Source of the DNA: Sphingobacteriia bacterium
Lineage (GTDB): Bacteria; Bacteroidota; Bacteroidia; NS11-12g; UBA9320
Direction: 5' to 3'
Length of the DNA: 64,000 nucleotides
Assembly (NCBI GenBank): GCA_008080835.1
Contig: VMDK01000027.1
Span: 1,514-65,513, forward strand
Part shown: positions 1,850 to 53,912 of the stretch, piece after piece
How positions within the stretch are numbered: position 1 is the first letter of the stretch
Layout: every line of letters starts with the position of its first letter
Position numbers and translations under genes: made by a program
The notes under the pieces: model-generated
What the model saw: only the letters and a program-made list of their open reading frames with translations
Database searches by the model: none
Told to the model about the DNA's origin: nothing

Positions 1850-4114
1850 ATGACAACGAAGAAATCCGACAAAAAGAAACGCTCACCTTTTATCACCAGA
1901 TGGATCAAACGATTATGGATCGTTTTTGGTGCAGGTATTTTGCTCTTCGTACTTTTCATGTTCGCCCTGAGCTGGGGATGGTTCGGGTACATGCCTGACA
2001 TCAAGGCACTGGAAGACCCAAGAACCAATCTTGCTACCGAGATCTATAGCTCCGATGGAGAAATTTTGGGCAAACTCTTTTATCTCGAAGATCGCACCAA
2101 TATTGAGTACTCCGATATCCCTGAGCATTTGGTCAACGCACTTATTGCCACAGAAGATGCCAGGTTCTACAAACACAGCGGGATCGACCCCAAGAGTATA
2201 CTACGAGCGGTAACGCTTCTTGGGAAACGCGGAGGAGGAAGTACCATCACTCAACAGCTAGCTAAGAACTTATTCCACCCGGAGCGAAGGAACAAGATCG
2301 AGCGGGTGGTACAGAAGCTTAAGGAATGGATCATTGCGGTTCAACTGGAGAAGAGGTATACCAAGGACGAGATCGTGATGATGTATTTCAACACGGCAAG
2401 CTGGGGATACAGCACCGGGATCAAATCGGCGGCCAAGACCTTCTTCAATAAGACCACCAGCGAACTGAACGTCGAAGAAAGCGCAGTGTTGGTTGGGATG
2501 TTGAAAGCACCGACCACCTACAATCCAAAAAGAAATCCGGAAAAGTCGAAAGGCCGAAGAGACGTGGTACTTGGGCAAATGAATAAGTACGAATACCTGA
2601 GTGATACGCAGTTAGATAGTCTGCAAGCGATCGAGATCGAGCTGGACTATAATCTGAGTTCACACGACCGTGGGATGGCTACTTACTTCCGTGAACACGT
2701 GCATCAGTTCATGAAGAATTGGTGTAAGGAAAATGGCTTTAACGTCTATAACGATGGTTTGAAAGTATATACGACCATCGACAGCAGGATGCAGCAATAT
2801 GCAGAAGAAGCTGTGAATGAGCATATGGTCGAACTGCAGGATCAATTCTTCAGAGAGACGAAGAGGCTTCGCGCAAACCCATGGAGAGATGAAGAACATG
2901 CTTGGAAAGAGGATAAGGATTACATTCCCAAACACCTGAAACGGACTCCTCAATATCTCGCCTTGAAGAAGCAAGGAAAGAGCCACAAGCAGATCATGGT
3001 GGAGATGGAGAAACCGGTTCAGTTGAGCATTTTCAGCTGGGACGGCGAGATCGACACGACCATGTCGGTGATCGACTCACTCAAATACTACAAGCAGATC
3101 CTGCACAGCGGATTCATGGCGATGAACCCACATACCGGTCACATCAAGGCCTGGGTGGGTGGCATCGACTTCAAGCATTTTCAGTATGATCACGTGAATA
3201 AACGCGCTACCAGACAGGTTGGATCAACCTTCAAACCGATCGTGTATGCCCGTGCTCTGGAAGATCGTGTAGTACAACCTTGCGAGTATATCCCGACCAC
3301 TTCTGTGACGTTCGAACTGGACGACGGCGACACCTGGACTCCTCGAAACTCTGACGACCCTGATGAGTCTGAACTGCGCGTGTACGAATGCCTGAAGAAG
3401 TCCCTGAACACAGGAACCGCTCGGGTTATGAAACGCATGGAGCCACAGTCTCCGCTCAAAGTGAAGGACTTCAGCGACAAGTTGGGGATCGATACGCGAA
3501 AGTTCGTCCCGTATCCGTCTATCTGTCTGGGAACGATGGACCTTTCGGTATATGAAATGGTCGGCGCATACGGAGCCTTTGCCAATCAAGGCACCTGGAC
3601 CGAACCGGTGTACATTACACGCATTGAAGACAAGCATGGAAACATCCTTCAGGAGTTCATTCCGAATACCACGGAAGCCATGAGCAAGCAAACGGCTTAT
3701 ACCATGGTTCAGATGCTTCAAAAGGTAACTGAAGGTGGCGGTACAGCTGCAAGACTGCGCTTCCGCTATAATATCCGGACTCCGGTCGGAGGAAAGACCG
3801 GAACCACCCAGAACAACTCAGATGGTTGGTTCATTGGAGTCACCCCGGATCTGGTTGGAGGATGCTGGGTCGGTTGTGAAGACCGACAGGTCCATTTCCG
3901 CAACACGGCATACGGACAAGGAGCCAACATGGCGCTCCCCATCTTCGGGATCTTCCTCAATGATGTCTACGCCGATCGTTCGATAAAGATCTCCCAGGAA
4001 GCATTCGAAAAACCGGAAGGAGAATTCGAGATCACCATGGATTGCGAAGCGTTCGATGAACAACATCAGGACGATCAGGATGTGGTGGATCCACCTCCGG
4101 GCATCGGACGGTAA
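1850..4114 (+). CDS. mrcA: Penicillin-binding protein 1A (bifunctional glycosyltransferase/transpeptidase)
   Basis: N-terminal TM segment. GT51 motifs EDARFYKHSGID and GGSTITQQLAKN. Transpeptidase region with STFKP (SxxK) and KTGT motifs. 754 aa. Confidence 0.9.
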   Translation: MTTKKSDKKKRSPFITRWIKRLWIVFGAGILLFVLFMFALSWGWFGYMPDIKALEDPRTNLATEIYSSDGEILGKLFYLEDRTNIEYSDIPEHLVNALIATEDARFYKHSGIDPKSILRAVTLLGKRGGGSTITQQLAKNLFHPERRNKIERVVQKLKEWIIAVQLEKRYTKDEIVMMYFNTASWGYSTGIKSAAKTFFNKTTSELNVEESAVLVGMLKAPTTYNPKRNPEKSKGRRDVVLGQMNKYEYLSDTQLDSLQAIEIELDYNLSSHDRGMATYFREHVHQFMKNWCKENGFNVYNDGLKVYTTIDSRMQQYAEEAVNEHMVELQDQFFRETKRLRANPWRDEEHAWKEDKDYIPKHLKRTPQYLALKKQGKSHKQIMVEMEKPVQLSIFSWDGEIDTTMSVIDSLKYYKQILHSGFMAMNPHTGHIKAWVGGIDFKHFQYDHVNKRATRQVGSTFKPIVYARALEDRVVQPCEYIPTTSVTFELDDGDTWTPRNSDDPDESELRVYECLKKSLNTGTARVMKRMEPQSPLKVKDFSDKLGIDTRKFVPYPSICLGTMDLSVYEMVGAYGAFANQGTWTEPVYITRIEDKHGNILQEFIPNTTEAMSKQTAYTMVQMLQKVTEGGGTAARLRFRYNIRTPVGGKTGTTQNNSDGWFIGVTPDLVGGCWVGCEDRQVHFRNTAYGQGANMALPIFGIFLNDVYADRSIKISQEAFEKPEGEFEITMDCEAFDEQHQDDQDVVDPPPGIGR

Positions 4115-4174
4115 TGATACATTTGATTTTCTGAACCACGGAGCTTGCCCACCTCCGGCAAGGCACAGAGGTCG

Positions 4175-4199
4175 GGGCACCTATGCCCTTTCTCCTTTT
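4175..4199 (+). terminator. Weak intrinsic terminator-like hairpin (GGGCA-ccta-TGCCC) followed by a T-rich tract, in a convergent gap
   Basis: 5-bp stem with 4-nt loop at 4175-4188, then tttctcctttt. Lies between the PBP1a stop (4114) and the stop of the LptD-like gene on the minus strand (4211). Confidence 0.3.
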
Positions 4200-4210
4200 A
4201 CCTAACCCCT

Positions 4211-6802
4211 CTAGTTGTCGTACCAGAATCCGCGACGGGTGAGTTTCAGATCCTGCAACGTAGCTGATTTGACACGGATCACGAAGTCGAAGCGGCGATA
4301 AGTACCCGTTGGGATCCAGCCAAAACTGAACTCCCAGCAGTGCAGATCGCGGAAGAAATCGATCTTGGTCAGGGTGCTTTCCTTGCGCTGGAAATTATAT
4401 CCCGAACTGAATCCGATCTTCCAGTTCTCGGTGAGTTTGACATCACCGTTAAAGGTGACCGTTTGTTCCTTTCGTGCTTCTTCGTCAAATGAGCGACTGA
4501 AGTTGAAACTGTAGCTCAAATTCAGACTCCATGGGATGTTGAAATCCACGAAATACTGACTGTACGCGTTGATCACCTCCAGCTCCTCTTCAGAAGCATT
4601 GGGTGAGGTCTTGGGTTTCAATGCCTGAGGATTCAGGTTCGTGCTCAGCGACAGTCGAGAGGATGTCATCCTCACGAGCTTGCCATTATTGATCGAGAAA
4701 TCGTTGATGCGCACATTGCGACTGCGCGTTGAGTCATACGTAAAGTCGTATGGGTCAAATCCGGCGCTGAAGGTGAACCGTAGCATTTTGAAGAGTGTGG
4801 TGTTACCGCTCATGCTGATGTTGCGCAGGTTGAGTGAATCGGCCAGGAAGTTGTATCCGGAACTTACATTCAAAGACTCGATGATCTTGACCTTCTTCAA
4901 GCCACCATTGGACGTGTCCTTTTCACTTCGGACCTTGATCTCCAGGTTGTTTCCGATCGACATATTCAAGGCTCCGTTGGCTCCACCCGATGGTGCACCC
5001 AGGATACCACCTTCGAAGATGGAGTACCATTGCGTGTTGCCCGCGGTGTCAGATTGTACTTCGCGATATCCGAAGCGCTCCTGCTCATTATACTGCGGAG
5101 CCCAGGAACCACTCAGTGTCGGTCGCATCACGTGCCGGATGGCGTAAAGCTTACCCTTCCTGAATTGCTTGAATCCATAAATGGTCGTGTTCATACTGAT
5201 GCTCGCCGAGTAGGTCGAAGCACGCTGGAACCCTCGCACATCACGGGTGATTAGCGTATCATTCTCCCAGCTCTTTTCGATGGTTTTAAAATACCAGTGA
5301 TCGGCGAAGTTGACCGATGGGGAGATGTTGAAATATTTGAACGCCTTGAATGATGTGGAGAATGGCATGCTGTGCTTCACTCCAAACCGAATATTTTCCT
5401 GCACGTCCGGATGAAAGCGCATGACGCCATTGTTGCGCTCAATGATGGAATCCTGATTGATCTGCAGGCTGTTCTGCAACTGCGACTGGTAGCTGATACC
5501 GAAATTCCGCAATGCCTTTTTCTTGCTCCTTGGACCGGAGAGATTGGCAAACGGTTGGATCCTGACCAGGTTCACGTTCATATCAGGTAAACGCATGTTG
5601 AGCTCACCCGTTCCCAGGTTCTGGTCGATCCTTCCACTCGTGCTAAAGTTCAACTTCCGATTCAGAAATGAGCGCGAGTAGTTCACACTACTGTTGGCAT
5701 TGGTCGCGAGGATGTCGTTCACCTCTTGAGAGTTGTTCCGCAATTGGTTTCGCGAAACAAAGTTCACGTTTGCGCTGAAGTTGGTACCGGGTTTTGACTT
5801 CCCGTCCTTGGTATAGTTCCAACGAACGGCATAATCGTTACTCACGGTATAGTCCGGGGCTTCCTTTTCTCCAAAGAAGTTCTTGTTGAAATCAAAGGCC
5901 ACCTGACCGCTGTACTTGTATCTGCGGCGGTATCTCGACACCAGGTGAAATCCATAACTTCCCCTGAAGTAGATATCTCCCGTAAGTTTGAGATCGAAGT
6001 AGTCATTCACCGGGAAATAATAGCCCCAGTTATTCAGGTAAAAACCGCGGTCCACTGTCTCTCCATAGCTTCCGATCACCACACCTTTGGACCTGGCTTT
6101 GTTTATCGGGAAGAATGCAAAAGGCACGAACAATGGTGTATTCACTCCTTCTATGACCAAGTTGGCCGGACCACTGACTACTTGACTTCTGTCGACCACT
6201 TTGAACTTATCCGCTTCGATCCAGAAATGTGGTTCGGGAGCTTTACAAGTAGTGAAGGTTGCACCTTTCAAGTAGGTATTCCCGGTCGAATCACGCAGGA
6301 TCTTCTTACCGCGCAAAACGCCATCGGATTCCGTTGTGAGCACACCGCTGCTGATCCCTTTCTTCGTCTTAAAATTATACCACATCTCCTCAGCGTGATA
6401 GACCTTTCCTTCCGAAGTGAAGATCGGTTCACCCTGAACGATCCCGGCGCTGTCTTTGACCCCTACCGCATGAAGATCATTGGTCGCGAAGTCGACTTCA
6501 ATGAAATCGGCCTCCAACTTCATGTCGCCATACACGACTACAGCTTTGCCGTATAAATAGACTTTCTTACCCGGCACATTCAATCGCACCGAATCGCGTG
6601 ATTTGTAATCTACCACGGTTTCAAGCCCTCCTTTAGCCGGTTTGATCGAGAGCGAAAAACTGTCTTCTCCGATCCTCGAGGAATCAGCGATAACCATAGC
6701 GGAATCGGGGATAACCAAGGCAGAATCCACCTGTGCTTGTACGTTTCTACATACAAATAGTGCAATGAATGTGAAGACTATGGTGCTGAGATGCGTTCGC
6801 AC
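4211..6802 (-). CDS. lptD: LPS-assembly outer membrane protein, LptD/OstA-like
   Basis: 863 aa with signal peptide. N-terminal OstA-like segment (KVYLYGKAVVVYGDMKLEADFIEVD). Long C-terminal region with alternating beta-strand pattern. Sits beside an amidase gene, as is common for lptD in Bacteroidetes. The identification is by recollection, not by search. Confidence 0.5.
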   Translation of the reverse strand: MRTHLSTIVFTFIALFVCRNVQAQVDSALVIPDSAMVIADSSRIGEDSFSLSIKPAKGGLETVVDYKSRDSVRLNVPGKKVYLYGKAVVVYGDMKLEADFIEVDFATNDLHAVGVKDSAGIVQGEPIFTSEGKVYHAEEMWYNFKTKKGISSGVLTTESDGVLRGKKILRDSTGNTYLKGATFTTCKAPEPHFWIEADKFKVVDRSQVVSGPANLVIEGVNTPLFVPFAFFPINKARSKGVVIGSYGETVDRGFYLNNWGYYFPVNDYFDLKLTGDIYFRGSYGFHLVSRYRRRYKYSGQVAFDFNKNFFGEKEAPDYTVSNDYAVRWNYTKDGKSKPGTNFSANVNFVSRNQLRNNSQEVNDILATNANSSVNYSRSFLNRKLNFSTSGRIDQNLGTGELNMRLPDMNVNLVRIQPFANLSGPRSKKKALRNFGISYQSQLQNSLQINQDSIIERNNGVMRFHPDVQENIRFGVKHSMPFSTSFKAFKYFNISPSVNFADHWYFKTIEKSWENDTLITRDVRGFQRASTYSASISMNTTIYGFKQFRKGKLYAIRHVMRPTLSGSWAPQYNEQERFGYREVQSDTAGNTQWYSIFEGGILGAPSGGANGALNMSIGNNLEIKVRSEKDTSNGGLKKVKIIESLNVSSGYNFLADSLNLRNISMSGNTTLFKMLRFTFSAGFDPYDFTYDSTRSRNVRINDFSINNGKLVRMTSSRLSLSTNLNPQALKPKTSPNASEEELEVINAYSQYFVDFNIPWSLNLSYSFNFSRSFDEEARKEQTVTFNGDVKLTENWKIGFSSGYNFQRKESTLTKIDFFRDLHCWEFSFGWIPTGTYRRFDFVIRVKSATLQDLKLTRRGFWYDN

Positions 6803-30339: not shown

Positions 30340-31869
30340 TTACAGATTTTTCAGAAGTTCTTTCATCGACACTTCAATGGAAACAATAGTGCTCAGCTCT
30401 TCGATCTTCACGCGCTTCTGCTCCATGGAGTCGCGGAATCGAACGGTTACGTCGTTGTTCTCCAAACTCTCATGGTCCACCGTGATGCACACCGGAGTAC
30501 CAATTGCATCTTGCCGTCTGTAGCGCTTTCCGATGCTATCCTTCTCTTCATAATAGCAGCTGAAATCGAACTTGAGGTCGTCCATGATCTTTCTGGCCAT
30601 TTCCGGCAGACCATCCTTTTTAACCAATGGCAGGATCGCACATTGGAATGGTGCCAGTGCCGGTGGCAAACTCAAGACGGTTCTTGTTCCTCCTTCTACT
30701 TCTTCTGTTTTCAGCGAGTTACTCAACAGAACGAGGAACATTCGATCCAGACCGATGGAAGTTTCAACTACATAAGGGACATAGCTTTCGTTACGCTCAG
30801 AATCAAAGTACTGGATCTTTTTACCTGTACTTTCCTGATGCTGACCCAGATCGAAATCGGTTCGTGAGTGTATACCCTCTACTTCTTTGAACCCGAATGG
30901 AAATTCATATTCTATATCAACAGCAGCATTGGCATAGTGAGCCAATTTGGTGTGGTCGTGATATCGGTAGCGTTCCGGGTCAATACCCAGGTTCAAATGC
31001 CACTGGAGCCGTTGTGCTTTCCAATGCTCGTACCATTTCATCTCATCACCGGGAGCTACGAAGAATTGCATCTCCATTTGCTCGAATTCCTTCATTCGCA
31101 TGATGAATTGGCGAGCTACGATCTCGTTTCGGAATGCCTTACCTGTTTGTGCGATCCCAAAGGGCAATCGCATGCGGCCGGTCTTCTGTACGTTCAGGTA
31201 ATTCACGAAGATCCCCTGAGCAGTCTCCGGTCTGAGGTAGATCTCCGATTCTCCGTCCGTAGCACTCATTTGAGTGCTGTACATCAGGTTGAATTGACGA
31301 ACTTCCGTCCAATTCTTTGATCCGGAGATCGGACAAGCGATCCCTTCGTCGATGATCAACTGACGGATCCGCTCCAGGTCGTTTTGTTCCAATCCCTCGC
31401 GCATCTCGTTGGAGATGTGATCGATCTTGTTCTGGTTGCGCAGCACATTCGGATTCGTGGCCAGGAATTGATCCAGGTCAAAGTCGTCACCGAAGCGCTT
31501 GGAGGCTTTGGCGATCTCCTTCTGGATCTTCTTGCGATATTTCTCCTGATGCTCTTCGAGCAGCACATCCGCACGGTAGCGCTTCTTGCTGTCCTTATTG
31601 TCGATCATCGGATCATTGAAACCGTCGACGTGTCCACTTGTTTTCCATACACTAGGCGACATAAAAATGGCGGCGTCCAACCCAACAATGTTCTCGTTGA
31701 GTTGCACCATGCTCTTCCACCAATAGTCACGGATGTTCTTTTTCAGTTCGACCCCATTCTGGCCGTAATCGTAAACGGCTGCCAAGCCGTCATAGATCTC
31801 GCTGCTGGGGAAGACGAACCCATACTCCTTAGCATGGGCGATCACGTGTTTAAAATGTTCCTCTGACAT
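30340..31869 (-). CDS. glyQS: Glycine-tRNA ligase (dimeric class II type)
   Basis: The ATG at 31869 gives MSEEHFKHVIAHAKEYGFVFPSSEIYDGL. Class-II core (FRNEI...) and a C-terminal anticodon-binding domain. 509 aa. Confidence 0.9.
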   Translation of the reverse strand: MSEEHFKHVIAHAKEYGFVFPSSEIYDGLAAVYDYGQNGVELKKNIRDYWWKSMVQLNENIVGLDAAIFMSPSVWKTSGHVDGFNDPMIDNKDSKKRYRADVLLEEHQEKYRKKIQKEIAKASKRFGDDFDLDQFLATNPNVLRNQNKIDHISNEMREGLEQNDLERIRQLIIDEGIACPISGSKNWTEVRQFNLMYSTQMSATDGESEIYLRPETAQGIFVNYLNVQKTGRMRLPFGIAQTGKAFRNEIVARQFIMRMKEFEQMEMQFFVAPGDEMKWYEHWKAQRLQWHLNLGIDPERYRYHDHTKLAHYANAAVDIEYEFPFGFKEVEGIHSRTDFDLGQHQESTGKKIQYFDSERNESYVPYVVETSIGLDRMFLVLLSNSLKTEEVEGGTRTVLSLPPALAPFQCAILPLVKKDGLPEMARKIMDDLKFDFSCYYEEKDSIGKRYRRQDAIGTPVCITVDHESLENNDVTVRFRDSMEQKRVKIEELSTIVSIEVSMKELLKNL

Positions 31870-32259
31870 GGATGTGCTTTTGAGCGCGCAAAGATAGCTA
31901 TGAAGAATAGAAGTGTATAGTGTGAGTGAAGAGTGTTTGCACGCCATTGAATGAAGGGAACAGGAAGTTGAACCACAAAGACACGGAGAACACAGAGAAG
32001 TGTACTTTTAAACTCGCCCCTGTCGATATTGCTGGAGATGAACAGTGTAAGGGTAGAGTGTAAGGGAATAGGGAGCAATTCCCTTGGGTACAGTTGGCAG
32101 AACAGTTGAGGCGTTCGGGTGCGACTTGCTTTGCCTGTTGTTCGTCCTTCCACTAGGCCAGTCTTTAGCGAAAGAATTTAACGCAGACTACGTCATCATT
32201 ATGAGCCGATTAGTGTGCTTACCCGCCTTTGGTGGGAGTGAACAGTGTGCTTAAGTGAA

Positions 32260-34182
32260 TTACTCTGGCTGTTCTTCTTTCTTGGCTTGGTTCTGAGCCC
32301 GCACTTCGGCTGCTTTCTGGAAATAGATCTGTGCCTGAGCCGGCTGTCTTAAATTGCCATAGCCTCTTGCGATGTTCTCATACACTTGAGGATTATTCGG
32401 AGCGATCTCACTCAAACGCAGAAAGTAATCAATAGACTTCTGATATTGTCCCTGAACCCCATAAGCCACTCCCATCAATCGCAACAATTCCGGGTTATTG
32501 GGTTCGATCTGTTCGGCTTTCCCGAGATAATCCATGGCAACGTTCACATCACCCGTCTCACCTATGGTCTTCGCTCCTGCCATATACGCTTTGACGAGAT
32601 TTGAATGAACTTTCTCAGGTGTACTGCTGAAGCGCTGATAGTTCAGGAAACTAGTGATCGCCTGGGGATATTCCTGCAGAATGTAATGGGCATTTCCTTG
32701 AAGGATATAAGCTGTTTTATACGCAGGATGGATCTTGATCGCTTTATCGACGTACTTCAGCCCTTTGCGCAGATTGGCTTCGTCGCAATTCTCGCCACCT
32801 TCCAAAATACACTTATCGATCAGACTCCCTCCGGCTGCCTGGTTCAACTTGGCGCTGTTGGTCATCGTGAGTACATCGGTTTGAAACAGACTGAAATCTG
32901 AAACCCAAACAGTGTTACGGCTCATGGTCTTCATTGCGAATAGTGCCAAAACAACTCCAAGAACTGCGATCCGCGTGGGCTGTTTCTTATCCTTTTTCCA
33001 GATCAAGCGTCCTACGGCAATACAAAACCCGAGCGAACCCATGAATGCAAATCGTTCGCCCATGTGCGTTCCTACCGGGAATAATATGTTACTGATCAGT
33101 ATCAATGAGACGATGAAGTAGGCGATGCCGAAGCTCAAAACCTTTCTGCTGCGATACCACTTGAAGAAAGCCCAGATCAATCCACCATATATGAGCAGAG
33201 AAACCAAGACTTCCCAACTTCCCATTTCGGGTATTCCTATCGCCCTGGGATAGTAGTCATGCGACAGCGGGTGCGGGATAACCAGCAATTTCACATAGTA
33301 TCCCAAACAGAAGATGATCGAGGCTACTCGCTCTCCGGGGGTCATCAGTACATACTTTCCGCCGGCAAATTTGACGAATGGGTTGTTCATCATCTCCATA
33401 TTGCCATAAACAGCTTCCCCGGTTCCCAGGATCGCGAAACGAATCGCCAGGTAAGGAAGCATCCCGACCAATAAAGGCCAGGTACTCTTGACAGAGTTGA
33501 AGAAATTCTGCTTGCCGAAAACGAAGAATATCAGAAAGGCTACAGGGACGAATGTTGCCGCCATTTCCTTGGCCATCATGGCGAGGAACATGACTGCTGC
33601 AGACAGCACCACGCTTTGCGTTTTATTATCCGAAAGCAGGAGATACAATGCCCAGGTCCCAAGCAGCATCGATAAGATCTCATCCCGTCCCTTGATATTG
33701 GCAACAACTTCGGTATGAATAGGATGGAATGCAAAAAGTAAGGTGATCACCAGCGGTAAAAGGCCCGGTTTTCGACCATGTTTCAGAAACAATCGTTCCA
33801 AAAACAAGAAGATGAGCACACATAACAAACTGAAACACAGAATATTGATCAAATGTCCGCCAAATGGATTGTCACCAAATATTTCGTACTCAATAGCGAA
33901 CATGGCCAGACTGAGCGGACGATAACGACCACCGCTGACCAGTTTATCCTTGCCTTCTACTTTGAAAAATCCCCTGAAGGTGTCGTATTTGAACAACTCC
34001 GGCAACCCTTTGATCCCCTTTTTTGTGAAATCGTTTTGCGTGATCACAATAGCATCATCGATGGTATAACCATGATTGAGCGTATTGCCATAGAGGAGAA
34101 TAGAAGTAATGGCTACAATCAGGATCTGGTGCATCCTCGAAAGGTTGTTCCACCACAAGTTCGGCGCGGTCGCTCTTGACAT
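32260..34182 (-). CDS. Polytopic membrane protein with C-terminal TPR repeats, TMTC/PMT-like GT-C-fold glycosyltransferase family (DUF1736-like)
   Basis: 640 aa. About 10 predicted TM helices. Conserved acidic DD after TM1 (YTIDDAIVITQND). C-terminal third made of TPR repeats (AYILQGNAHYIL, LMGVAYGVQGQY, ENIARGYGNL). Confidence 0.5.
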   Translation of the reverse strand: MSRATAPNLWWNNLSRMHQILIVAITSILLYGNTLNHGYTIDDAIVITQNDFTKKGIKGLPELFKYDTFRGFFKVEGKDKLVSGGRYRPLSLAMFAIEYEIFGDNPFGGHLINILCFSLLCVLIFLFLERLFLKHGRKPGLLPLVITLLFAFHPIHTEVVANIKGRDEILSMLLGTWALYLLLSDNKTQSVVLSAAVMFLAMMAKEMAATFVPVAFLIFFVFGKQNFFNSVKSTWPLLVGMLPYLAIRFAILGTGEAVYGNMEMMNNPFVKFAGGKYVLMTPGERVASIIFCLGYYVKLLVIPHPLSHDYYPRAIGIPEMGSWEVLVSLLIYGGLIWAFFKWYRSRKVLSFGIAYFIVSLILISNILFPVGTHMGERFAFMGSLGFCIAVGRLIWKKDKKQPTRIAVLGVVLALFAMKTMSRNTVWVSDFSLFQTDVLTMTNSAKLNQAAGGSLIDKCILEGGENCDEANLRKGLKYVDKAIKIHPAYKTAYILQGNAHYILQEYPQAITSFLNYQRFSSTPEKVHSNLVKAYMAGAKTIGETGDVNVAMDYLGKAEQIEPNNPELLRLMGVAYGVQGQYQKSIDYFLRLSEIAPNNPQVYENIARGYGNLRQPAQAQIYFQKAAEVRAQNQAKKEEQPE

Positions 34183-50992: not shown

Positions 50993-51193
50993 TTGAAGTT
51001 CACCATTCTCACCATGCTTCTCGGCTGGTGGGGTATCCCATGGGGACCGATCTATACCATCGGTAGCATCTTCCGCAATCTCAGTGGCGGCGTCGACGTC
51101 ACCCAGGAAGTGATCGAATCCATGGCTACTCCGGAAGAGGAGACCGCGGAGGAGATCGTGGAACAGGTTGAAAGGAGACTTGAGGACAGTTAG
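50993..51193 (+). CDS. Small hypothetical membrane protein (TTG start), doubtful
   Basis: 66 aa. Hydrophobic N-terminus (LLGWWGIPWG), acidic tail. Overlaps the extended 3' end of the adjacent four-helix-bundle pseudogene. No supporting motifs. Confidence 0.25.
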   Translation: MKFTILTMLLGWWGIPWGPIYTIGSIFRNLSGGVDVTQEVIESMATPEEETAEEIVEQVERRLEDS

Positions 51194-51563
51194 GGGATAG
51201 GAGATAGGTGTTCGGGATTGACTTGAGGTAACGCATGTAACCCGAGATCATCTTCTCTAATTCCTGCAATTCATTAACATGGTGATTCATTTCATTATTC
51301 GAAAACCCATAATTCCCTAGAAGCATCAATTGTGTTTCAAGCTAATAGCAAGAGCCAAGAGCTATTCTGAGGTAATTCAGGAAAGAACGGTTAGTCTGTG
51401 CACATCCCTCCGCAATATTGGATGGAATAGAAATGGCACTTTTTTGGATCTGCCTGCCTAGAGCAGAGAATTCTAGATTTTTTGAGGAAGAAGTAAGTTC
51501 AAAAGCGGATCTGGCAATTCCCAATGATCTTTGCCAAATCTCCAGATTGCGAAAATTTCTCAT
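51126..51563 (-). pseudogene. Four-helix-bundle protein gene (23S rRNA intervening-sequence protein family) interrupted by an in-frame TAG
   Basis: The N-terminal part MRNFRNLEIWQRS...IPSNIAEGC...LGSCY stops at TAG (51342-51344). The same frame continues LETQLMLLGNYGF...ELEKMISGYMRYLKS. Family members read ...GSCSELETQL... there, so a sense codon has become amber. The C-terminus then runs on past the expected end. Confidence 0.5.
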
Positions 51564-51673
51564 TCCGCAATGAATTAGATTTCATTGACATGCTAGAAAA
51601 AAATATGGTCCGCGTTAAAATTCTCTCTCCCAGCGCCCCTATCTCCCATCTCCTAGAACCTATCTCCTAAAAC

Positions 51674-53731: not shown

Positions 53732-53829
53732 GTTTGTCAGAATGATTAGAGTTTCCTTAACTCGTAATTCTTTCTTGAACCACGGAGACACGGAGGGCAC
53801 AGAGAAGGATCACAAAGAAAAATGGCGTT

Positions 53830-53885
53830 CCCTGAGCCTGTCGAAGGGAGGCATTTTGCTATCGTGCCCTTCGACAAGCTCAGGG
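53830..53885. terminator. Strong hairpin (19-bp arms, 1 mismatch, 18-nt loop) in the convergent gap between PPTase and dsbD; likely bidirectional terminator
   Basis: ccctgagcctgtcgaaggg (53830-53848) and cccttcgacaagctcaggg (53867-53885). Confidence 0.5.
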
Positions 53886-53912
53886 TCCGACACTCAAGAC
53901 AAAAAGAAAACA

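Follow-up and report, generated by a model that had tools for sequence, protein, structure and literature searches.

Solo copies of a purine-rich CACNRAG triple repeat in a Bacteroidota contig, a candidate arm of foldback repeats patchily dispersed across bacterial phyla

STRR arrays consist of 7-nt units in variable copy number and are confined to heterocystous cyanobacteria, and, like REPs and MITEs, they are usually private to one species or genus. The small dispersed repeats (SDR) of Elhai are reportedly very small insertions that land within such repeats with no duplication of the target. REPs are short extragenic sequences, numbering tens to hundreds in a genome, that occur as singlets or as hairpin-forming inverted doublets, the doublet being the replicating unit (PMC3116915). 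Each REP is an imperfect palindrome and carries a GTAG/GT[AG]G or CGTC foot (PMC6006769, PMC3733652). In one known selfish IVS, 28-bp terminal inverted repeats are cut by RNase III (PMC4990558). The arm family described here works like a REPIN, a MITE or an IVS stem, yet it lacks features that define REPs and classical MITEs. We know of no published name for this repeat, and its two- and three-unit strings, like descriptive terms for it, had no relevant match in the literature searched, most subscription journals lying outside the coverage of that search.

In the window, that is, the whole 64-kb stretch of DNA that was analysed, the motif TGAAC-CACRRAG-R-CACRGAG-RR-CACAGAG occurs in three copies, all on the plus strand. 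A preliminary description of this DNA had reported a motif common to the gaps after mrcA and after the PPTase gene, and it was located at both, with TGAACCACGGAG at 4132-4143 and 53776-53787 and GGCACAGAG at 4162-4170 and 53796-53804; the count of two was incomplete, a third copy being situated at 31968-31999. Copy 1 (4132-4170) retains unit 1 with its head (TGAACCACGGAG) and unit 3 (GCACAGAG, 4163-4170) intact, and a mini-hairpin takes the place of its middle unit. Copy 2 (53775-53806) is a complete three-unit arm, TTGAACCACGGAGACACGGAGGGCACAGAGAA, parsed as TTGAAC-CACGGAG-A-CACGGAG-GG-CACAGAG-AA, with the PPTase stop codon 44 nt before it. Copy 3 is also complete (TTGAACCACAAAGACACGGAGAACACAGAGAA); a search for adjacent units parsed it as TTGAAC-CACAAAG-A-CACGGAG-AA-CACAGAG-AA, and its period is 9 by TRF. 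The distance of about 20 nt described before GGCACAGAG applies to copy 1, where the mini-hairpin makes it 19 nt, and not to copy 2, where it is 8 nt.

With at most one mismatch, GAACCACGGAG matched four times in the window against 1.0 expected, a number reached in 0 of 100 shuffles, and GGCACAGAG taken alone showed no enrichment there. Furthermore, a profile HMM trained on 212 arms, all from other genomes, recovered copy 2 (E 7e-10) and copy 3 (E 7e-9) with nhmmer, matched copy 1 as two separate halves, and matched nowhere in the 64 kb beyond the three copies. Because these E-values are very small, the shared motif is real and not a product of chance. Copy 1 is flanked by the genes of PBP1a (+) and a Bacteroidota-type LptD (-), and copy 2 by those of PPTase (+) and DsbD (-), all four of which had been guessed correctly at the outset. 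Copy 3 is located between a prolyl-tRNA-synthetase-like (class II aminoacyl-tRNA-synthetase) gene (30340-31947, minus strand) and a TPR/PMT_2 gene (32260-34182, minus strand), a co-directional gap in which the arm is antisense to both neighbours. Beyond the arm, the three copies have no sequence in common, and the window arms fold no better than shuffled sequence (z -0.2 to -1.2). All three are solo, inert-looking arms. Their density, 3 in 64 kb, would predict about one copy per 20 kb for the genome.

Both convergent gaps recur in independent contigs of the same species, and the copies are therefore no assembly artefact. A metagenome contig of the same species and strain (L151) carries the copy-2 gap, with one difference in 271 nt and an identical arm. 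A second same-species contig (L234) shares 94.9% identity across 6,427 nt, and its 96-nt copy-1 gap contains a single SNP, located in the adjoining terminator-like stem and outside the arm. About 4.9 differences would be expected in this gap at the flanking rate compared with the one seen (Poisson P ~0.04), which hints weakly at constraint or recent homogenisation. In more distant relatives, the motif is absent from the PBP1a-LptD gap of L235-L237 (gaps of 18, 504 and 117 nt; 79, 77 and 76% protein identity) and from the PPTase-DsbD gap of L143 (257 nt; 80% protein identity), and the latter gap measures only 16 or 0 nt in relatives at 55-56% identity. Copies 1 and 2 are therefore lineage-specific additions.

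The mini-hairpin of copy 1 (4144-4162, plus strand) is a 19-nt sequence, CTTGCC-CACCTCC-GGCAAG, that occupies the place of the middle 9-nt unit, has a fold energy of -8.2 kcal/mol and occurs once in the window. A direct repeat had been described between this region and the end of mrcA; the repeat is present, and its extent was corrected to an exact 10-mer, CCACCTCCGG, at 4091-4100 in the end of the PBP1a gene and at 4149-4158. The second occurrence corresponds to the loop and the 3' stem of the mini-hairpin, the PBP1a-end copy lies 58 nt upstream, and such a 10-mer repeat within 211 nt has an estimated chance of about 2%. A local patch templated from the end of the PBP1a gene may be the origin of the copy-1 hairpin. 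Similar structures were observed twice more, in an Isosphaeraceae MAG, where a GC hairpin of about 20 nt stands for the middle unit (L087 and L104; -6.9 and -8.6 kcal/mol). L087 is orthologous to a locus of a MAG labelled Phycisphaerae (L037; 88% identity over 2.3 kb), which retains a normal CACAGAG unit where L087 has the hairpin, and the hairpin is therefore a secondary replacement within a pre-existing arm. The replacement of the middle unit by a mini-hairpin in copy 1 resembles an SDR-type insertion into tandem repeats.

Across genomes, the arm is about 28-32 nt long: a head, [G/T][A/C]AC, precedes three CACNRAG units of 8-9 nt with purines between them. Among 283 arms the head reads GAAC, TAAC, TCAC or TTAC. 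The CAC..AG of every unit is essentially invariant and positions four and five vary, CACAGAG being the most frequent form, followed by CACGGAG and then by CACGAAG and CACAAAG. The sequence is A-rich upstream of the arm and purine-rich over the first ~20 nt downstream. Three units are present in 218 of 278 arms, two in 49, four in 10 and five in 1. Under a relaxed definition, 186 of the 283 arms belong to F..R inverted pairs with a spacer of 1-184 nt, the remaining 97 being solo. Of the 28 stem positions, 91.8% are pairable across 46 distinct pairs, with covariation above that of all 500 partner shuffles. The second spacer is mismatched in 30-41% of these pairs and the outermost head position in 28 of the 46 (GAAC opposite TAAC, TCAC or TTAC), and the palindromy commonly ends 2 nt outside the first CAC. 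No target-site duplication was observed, as direct repeats were found neither outside 60 pairs nor outside seven Isosphaeraceae-type elements (six from one MAG and the orthologous copy of the Phycisphaerae MAG).

In other genomes, arms of 28-50 nt bound lineage-specific elements of 60-260 nt. The arm is embedded in two kinds of TIR-bounded repeat (~95-140 nt) in Nostocales; in Isosphaeraceae and Gemmataceae it forms part of a long palindrome, in Sorangium of an element of ~190 nt and in an Armatimonadia MAG of one of ~140 nt. One Isosphaeraceae MAG contains six copies of a 187-261-nt element with 50-nt arms, whose interiors are homologous, diverged and present in either orientation. At L033, two copies have the same left arm, which departs from its own partner in each copy at three positions; an imperfect doublet was therefore copied as a unit. 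Pairs in Sorangium, Nostoc and Isosphaeraceae that had been taken for orthologues are really copies of longer lineage-specific repeats at different loci.

The distribution of the arm is cross-phylum yet patchy. A scan for the exact pattern GAACCACRRAGNCACRGAGNNCACRGAG (25 specified positions) in one genome per species found at least 120 genome loci in about 13 phyla. The phyla among the matches listed are Cyanobacteriota, Planctomycetota, Verrucomicrobiota, Myxococcota, Chloroflexota, Acidobacteriota, Gemmatimonadota, Armatimonadota, Pseudomonadota, Desulfobacterota, Spirochaetota, Hydrogenedentota and Bacteroidota. Carriers among these listed matches include Nostoc, Anabaena, Microcystis and others in the Cyanobacteriota, seven Sorangium genomes and Chondromyces in the Myxococcota, Chitinilyticum, Salinisphaera, Methylophaga and Sulfuritalea in the Pseudomonadota, and one Chitinophagales MAG in the Bacteroidota. 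Many carriers are isolates with complete genomes, for example Nostoc NIES-4103 and Sorangium So0157-2, and the spread is therefore not due to binning errors. In addition, the motif is present in 22 IMG/VR viral contigs and in Gemmatirosa, Nostoc-group and Bacteroides replicons, a search of cultured phages gave three weak matches, all to uncultured faecal phage contigs, and the motif was absent from each of 5,426 complete E. coli genomes. The suggestion of a small dispersed, REP-like repeat is thus borne out by the extra window copy and by a very large number of copies elsewhere. Two observations had been named in advance as counting against it: conservation at orthologous loci is indeed lacking, but the second, an absence of additional copies, is strongly contradicted by the very many found.

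The arms are chiefly intergenic, and every type of gap is occupied by some of the 283. The preference for convergent 3' gaps proposed in the preliminary description is therefore not upheld: copy 3 lies in a co-directional gap, and the only bias is an approximately 2:1 excess of sense-downstream positions, confined to solo arms (44 versus 21, with ORFs as a crude proxy for genes). No gene is linked to the arm. An all-against-all BLAST of 1,036 flanking ORFs returned no recurrent neighbour family, only unrelated housekeeping genes, and a Pfam scan of 150 neighbouring ORFs returned 176 different, ordinary families, with no transposase or recombinase among the 25 most recurrent ones listed. Neither the 1.1 Mb of motif-centred loci nor the window contains a Y1/RAYT/IS200-like ORF detectable with approximate queries. 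No arm pair in the loci examined encloses a transposase-like ORF; the sole pair whose arms lie over 1 kb from each other has a periplasmic binding-protein gene between them. Small ORFs directly downstream of an arm belong to no consistent family, and the arms themselves yield spurious ORFs, recognisable in ORF lists as LCALCASVV- and SVPSVPLWF-type peptides. The practical cost of such arms lies in broken assemblies, spurious ORFs, and misled intergenic-motif and sRNA screens.

Compared with REPs, the arms similarly occur solo and as inverted doublets, lie in intergenic DNA near gene ends and lack target-site duplication, and the doublet replicates as a unit in other genomes, which is not so for the three solo copies of the window. 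However, the differences are significant. None of the heads among the 283 arms ([G/T][A/C]AC) is a GTAG/GT[AG]G or CGTC foot. The arm is a purine-rich triple direct repeat without palindromic symmetry, whereas a REP is itself an imperfect palindrome of 20-40 nt. Moreover, each REP family is confined to one species or genus and co-evolves with the RAYT (TnpA-REP, a Y1 HUH transposase) that mobilises it, REP copies flanking a single-copy RAYT gene, whereas the arm core is near-identical in ~13 phyla. Bacterial MITEs (Correia/NEMIS, Nezha, TIMEs), which depend on DDE transposases, resemble the elements built on the arm in being non-coding, 60-260 nt long, TIR-bounded, multi-copy and intergenic, with lineage-specific interiors, and arm elements, too, are found in viral contigs; terminal inverted repeats are present elsewhere and not in the window copies. 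The elements differ from MITEs in the lack of target-site duplication, in the lack of a cognate IS with the same ends among the loci examined, in the many solo arms, and in a TIR core that is common to unrelated interiors in different phyla. The STRR arrays of Nostocales resemble the arm in being built of short tandem units, and they occupy intergenic DNA in organisms that also carry it, but the arm has a fixed head and exactly three 8-9-nt units and is distributed over many phyla.

The 23S-IVS/PF05635 cassettes provide a further comparison, as they also carry inverted tandem-unit arms that form a ~28-bp stem. Their units vary from locus to locus, whereas the CACNRAG arm sequence is frozen, and the CACNRAG spacers of 1-184 nt are too short for the cassette gene and are 'empty'. 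Inverted arrays of 6-9-nt tandem repeats stand immediately on both sides of 39 of 69 metagenome four-helix-bundle loci, again with a unit that varies locus to locus. A general link of the arm to four-helix-bundle or GxxExxY cassettes was rejected, as the CACNRAG arm occurs at just 1 of 80 four-helix-bundle (PF05635) loci. GxxExxY-like remnants adjoin arms at two loci (L074 and L106).

Several other identities were tried and set aside. An intrinsic terminator does not apply: the motif is unstructured, and the terminator-like site (4174-4199) is not within it. A Shine-Dalgarno mimic is contradicted by the units, most of which read CACAGAG and not GGAG; a DnaA-box array matches at only 7/9 and 5/9 positions; and an attC site matches R''/R' at 6/7 positions, yet no cassette array is present. 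Sigma-54 and ECF promoters and an IS91-type GAAC target combined with an oriIS end were dropped for lack of fit or test, and invertible promoters were discarded with spacers often below 40 nt. Rfam 15 gave no match in the window at the gathering score; for the copy-2 gap and for a perfect paired element, it gave nothing beyond generic hairpin (miRNA-precursor) matches below threshold.

These results point to the motif as the arm of a non-autonomous, replicating foldback repeat of the REPIN, MITE or IVS kind, with the window copies as solo arms, a reading to which we assign a probability of about 0.55. It is favoured because arms are paired, are copied unit-wise, are present in multiple copies per genome, and show a patchy spread and lineage-specific presence. 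In most genomes two arms stand opposite each other across a spacer of 1-184 nt and can form a stem of ~28 bp, and the doublet, often inside a lineage-specific element of 60-260 nt, multiplies as a unit with no duplication of its target. Mobilisation would presumably proceed in trans, through a putative protein recognising the triple repeat, and the paired forms, once transcribed, would be expected to serve as stems of the RNase III or terminator type. Among the loci examined there is neither an autonomous copy nor a candidate transposase. No filled-versus-empty site pair with near-identical flanks was recovered either, and mobility is therefore deduced from the distribution. The foldback model does not directly describe the window copies, which are all solo and cannot form the stem because they have no partner arm. 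Recent ancestors of this Bacteroidota lineage may have acquired such arms in their intergenic gaps. Most probably the arms are leftovers of selfish elements, or one-ended products of them, and would be carried passively in 3'-UTR or intergenic DNA.

REP and MITE families are normally lineage-specific, and a near-identical 28-nt core in ~13 phyla is unusual for them. A 28-nt module that is near-identical across phyla and phage contigs, with none in E. coli, calls for a recognition protein common to its carriers or for frequent movement of tiny pieces of DNA between phyla, and the fixed sequence of the arm makes the question testable. The interest therein is the phyletic breadth and not anything that the three window copies do, the result for the window being modest. 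As a tentative and somewhat doubtful extension, the arm may be the hallmark of a mobile foldback DNA superfamily not described before, with horizontal spread among bacteria. If true, this would imply one conserved, putative trans-acting enzyme, for which the candidates would be a new transposase or recombinase, or a hairpin-targeting activity tied to the small selfish four-helix-bundle and GxxExxY cassettes, and lineage-specific MITE-like elements would be built around the shared module.

The cross-phylum identity of the core could instead reflect selection by a conserved binding partner. According to this alternative, the arm is a functional array of three sites for a protein, putatively a nucleoid-associated, termination or processing factor with the same patchy bacterial distribution, and was merely captured by lineage-specific repeats. 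The even spacing of the units, their invariant CAC..AG with free purine spacers, the unit number fixed at three in 218 of 278 arms and the conservation of the core in ~13 phyla would all suit such an array. The same applies to the purine-rich sequence kept on each arm's own strand, and to pairs that mix unit variants, for example CACAGAG with CACGAAG, with 12 differences. Furthermore, the copy-1 gap is more conserved than its flanking genes between strains, and independent arms tolerate a looped-out hairpin for the middle unit. However, the arm is missing from the gene gaps of close relatives and from all E. coli genomes, its position and orientation relative to genes are not fixed, no neighbour gene recurs, and no candidate protein was found. 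The multi-copy elements with homologous interiors also point to replication as DNA. As the primary explanation, the binding array is unlikely.

A primary role at the RNA level is quite unlikely as well. Here, the paired ~28-bp stems would serve as RNase III sites, 3'-end stabilisers or bidirectional terminators, and the solo arms as purine-rich 3'-UTR elements. The pairability of 91.8% of the stem positions, the covariation in excess of shuffles, and the A-rich sequence upstream of the F arm, hence T-rich after the R arm, are consistent with this role, as is the excess of solo arms sense-downstream of a gene. In annotated Bacteroides finegoldii records, a terminator-like hairpin right after an aminotransferase gene is enclosed by one pair, and a second pair is situated between tatA and a murF/alr gene. 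In the window, copies 1 and 2 are found between a stop codon and a hairpin, and the 28-bp IVS stems cleaved by RNase III set a precedent (PMC4990558). Against this role, the window copies have no partner or significant fold, and copy 3 is antisense to both neighbours. The mismatches within pairs, at the second spacer and the outermost head position, also argue against it; moreover, structure alone leaves the cross-phylum sequence identity unexplained, and no Rfam family corresponds to the arm. Neither the binding array nor the RNA role is mutually exclusive with selfish spread.

The remaining explanations, an independent sRNA, convergence by slippage, and chance, are effectively excluded. An independently transcribed sRNA tied to the adjacent terminator, in favour of which stands the terminator-like hairpin after copy 1, is very improbable, as neither convergent gap has a sigma-70-like promoter, the motif has no significant fold or Rfam match, the copies are alike in the arm only, and the gene gaps of relatives lack it. 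Simple tandem repeats of the STRR type, arising by independent slippage in each lineage with a convergent or chance likeness, would fit the unit period of 8-9 and the many other short tandem arrays of different units that flank four-helix-bundle genes in similar genomes, but a fixed head with exactly three units is not an expected product of slippage, and the same 25 positions in at least 120 loci and ~13 phyla, with window HMM E-values of ~1e-9, leave this origin just as improbable.

Hairpins had been described beside copies 1 and 2 and do exist, but neither is related to the motif or to the other, one being a terminator-like stem and the other belonging to a different repeat family. The first (4174-4199, plus strand), downstream of PBP1a and the sole terminator-like site found, consists of GGGGCACCTATGCCCT followed by TTCTCCTTTT; its stem at 4174-4189, GGGGCA-CCTA-TGCCCT, precedes a T tract and adjoins copy 1 as a feature separate from the arm. 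The second is a palindrome at 53823-53892 with 26-nt arms, CCCTGAGCCTGTCGAAGGG ... CCCTTCGACAAGCTCAGGG, that are 85% complementary and fold at -50 kcal/mol (z = -4.1). Its core 18-mer, CCTTCGACARGCTCAGGG, has exact matches in at least 120 viral contigs, sometimes with an inverted partner arm before it, as CCGTTCG..TGAGCCTGTCGAA ... CCCTTCGACAAGCTCAGGGCGAACGG. This palindrome belongs to a different widespread family of dispersed repeats, not to the CACRGAG arm, and probably serves as the minus-strand terminator stem of DsbD.

The window also contains a PF05635 four-helix-bundle ('23S rRNA IVS protein') pseudogene with an in-frame stop (51126-51563, minus strand), accompanied by inverted purine-rich tandem arrays at 51193-51215 and 51628-51670. 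These flanking arms differ from CACNRAG. At the same position, the relative at 80% carries an intact, oppositely oriented PF05635 gene, and the inverted heptamer arrays on either side of it are built from a different unit.

In copy 1 of the arm, situated in the PBP1a–LptD gap, a GC mini-hairpin of approximately 20 nt (window 4144–4162) takes the place of the middle unit. The same replacement is found at two loci of an Isosphaeraceae MAG (L087, about 2195–2220; L104, about 4370–4395), and it is independent in the Bacteroidota genome of the window and in this MAG. Since the orthologous locus in a Phycisphaerae-labelled MAG (L037) retains the normal unit and shows no such replacement, the mini-hairpin arose secondarily within an existing arm, in a manner that recalls the insertion of very small sequences into tandem repeats. 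Furthermore, CCACCTCCGG forms an exact 10-nt direct repeat (4091–4100 and 4149–4158), with one copy in the last codons of PBP1a and the other in the mini-hairpin, across its loop and 3' stem. Such a repeat may have originated as a locally templated patch; it may also be generated by chance, with an estimated probability of about 2%. Between the window (4115–4210) and a same-species contig (L234, 8439–8534), the gap contains one difference in 96 bases, against a divergence of 5.1% across 6,427 aligned bases of the same two strains; conservation in the gap exceeds that of the coding sequence on either side (P about 0.04).

The 181-nt PPTase–DsbD gap around copy 2 holds two unrelated, adjacent pan-bacterial repeats, because the long palindrome beside the arm (53823–53892) belongs to a second, separate widespread family. 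The palindrome core, CCTTCGACARGCTCAGGG, has exact matches in at least 120 IMG/VR contigs, in some of which an inverted partner arm precedes it (CCGTTCG..TGAGCCTGTCGAA ... CCCTTCGACAAGCTCAGGGCGAACGG). Around copy 3, purine-rich short repeats adjoin the arm both upstream (AGTGTATAGTGTGAGTGAAGAGTGT, 31915–31950) and downstream (GTGTAAGGGTAGAGTGTAAGGGAATAGGGAG, 32040–32075), which suggests a gap pieced together from fragments of small repeats.

In Nostocales, the solo arm is a module inside two distinct TIR-bounded elements, the first (L004, L013, L017, and L108) with the ends AGGACTTACGCA...TGCGTAAGTCCT and the second (L012, L014, and L015) with GGGACTTCCAA...TTGGAAGTCCC, and both recur across species at non-orthologous loci. 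In Microcystis aeruginosa NIES-4325 (L106, 3760–3950), a 33-nt variant arm, ATTAACCACAAAGGCACGAAGGACACTAAGGGG, is repeated six times head-to-tail, and 16 nt after this array begins an ORF (MDERANDLSKEIIGAAIAVH...) whose product resembles a GxxExxY / PD-(D/E)XK protein. In Sorangium (L074, 2619–2984), a degraded GxxExxY-like ORF is followed by an arm.

The minus strand of the window carries a pseudogene of the four-helix-bundle type (PF05635, 23S-IVS protein; 51126–51563), which is interrupted by an in-frame stop and has inverted purine-rich tandem arrays on its flanks (51193–51215 and 51628–51670). At the equivalent site of an 80% relative (L143, 8068–8433), the PF05635 gene is intact, lies in the reversed orientation, and is bracketed by inverted heptamer arrays (TCGGGTN / ACCCGAT x6), unlike those of the window. 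Inverted arrays of 6–9-nt tandem repeats bracket four-helix-bundle genes in 39 of the 69 metagenome loci, with an array unit that varies from locus to locus.
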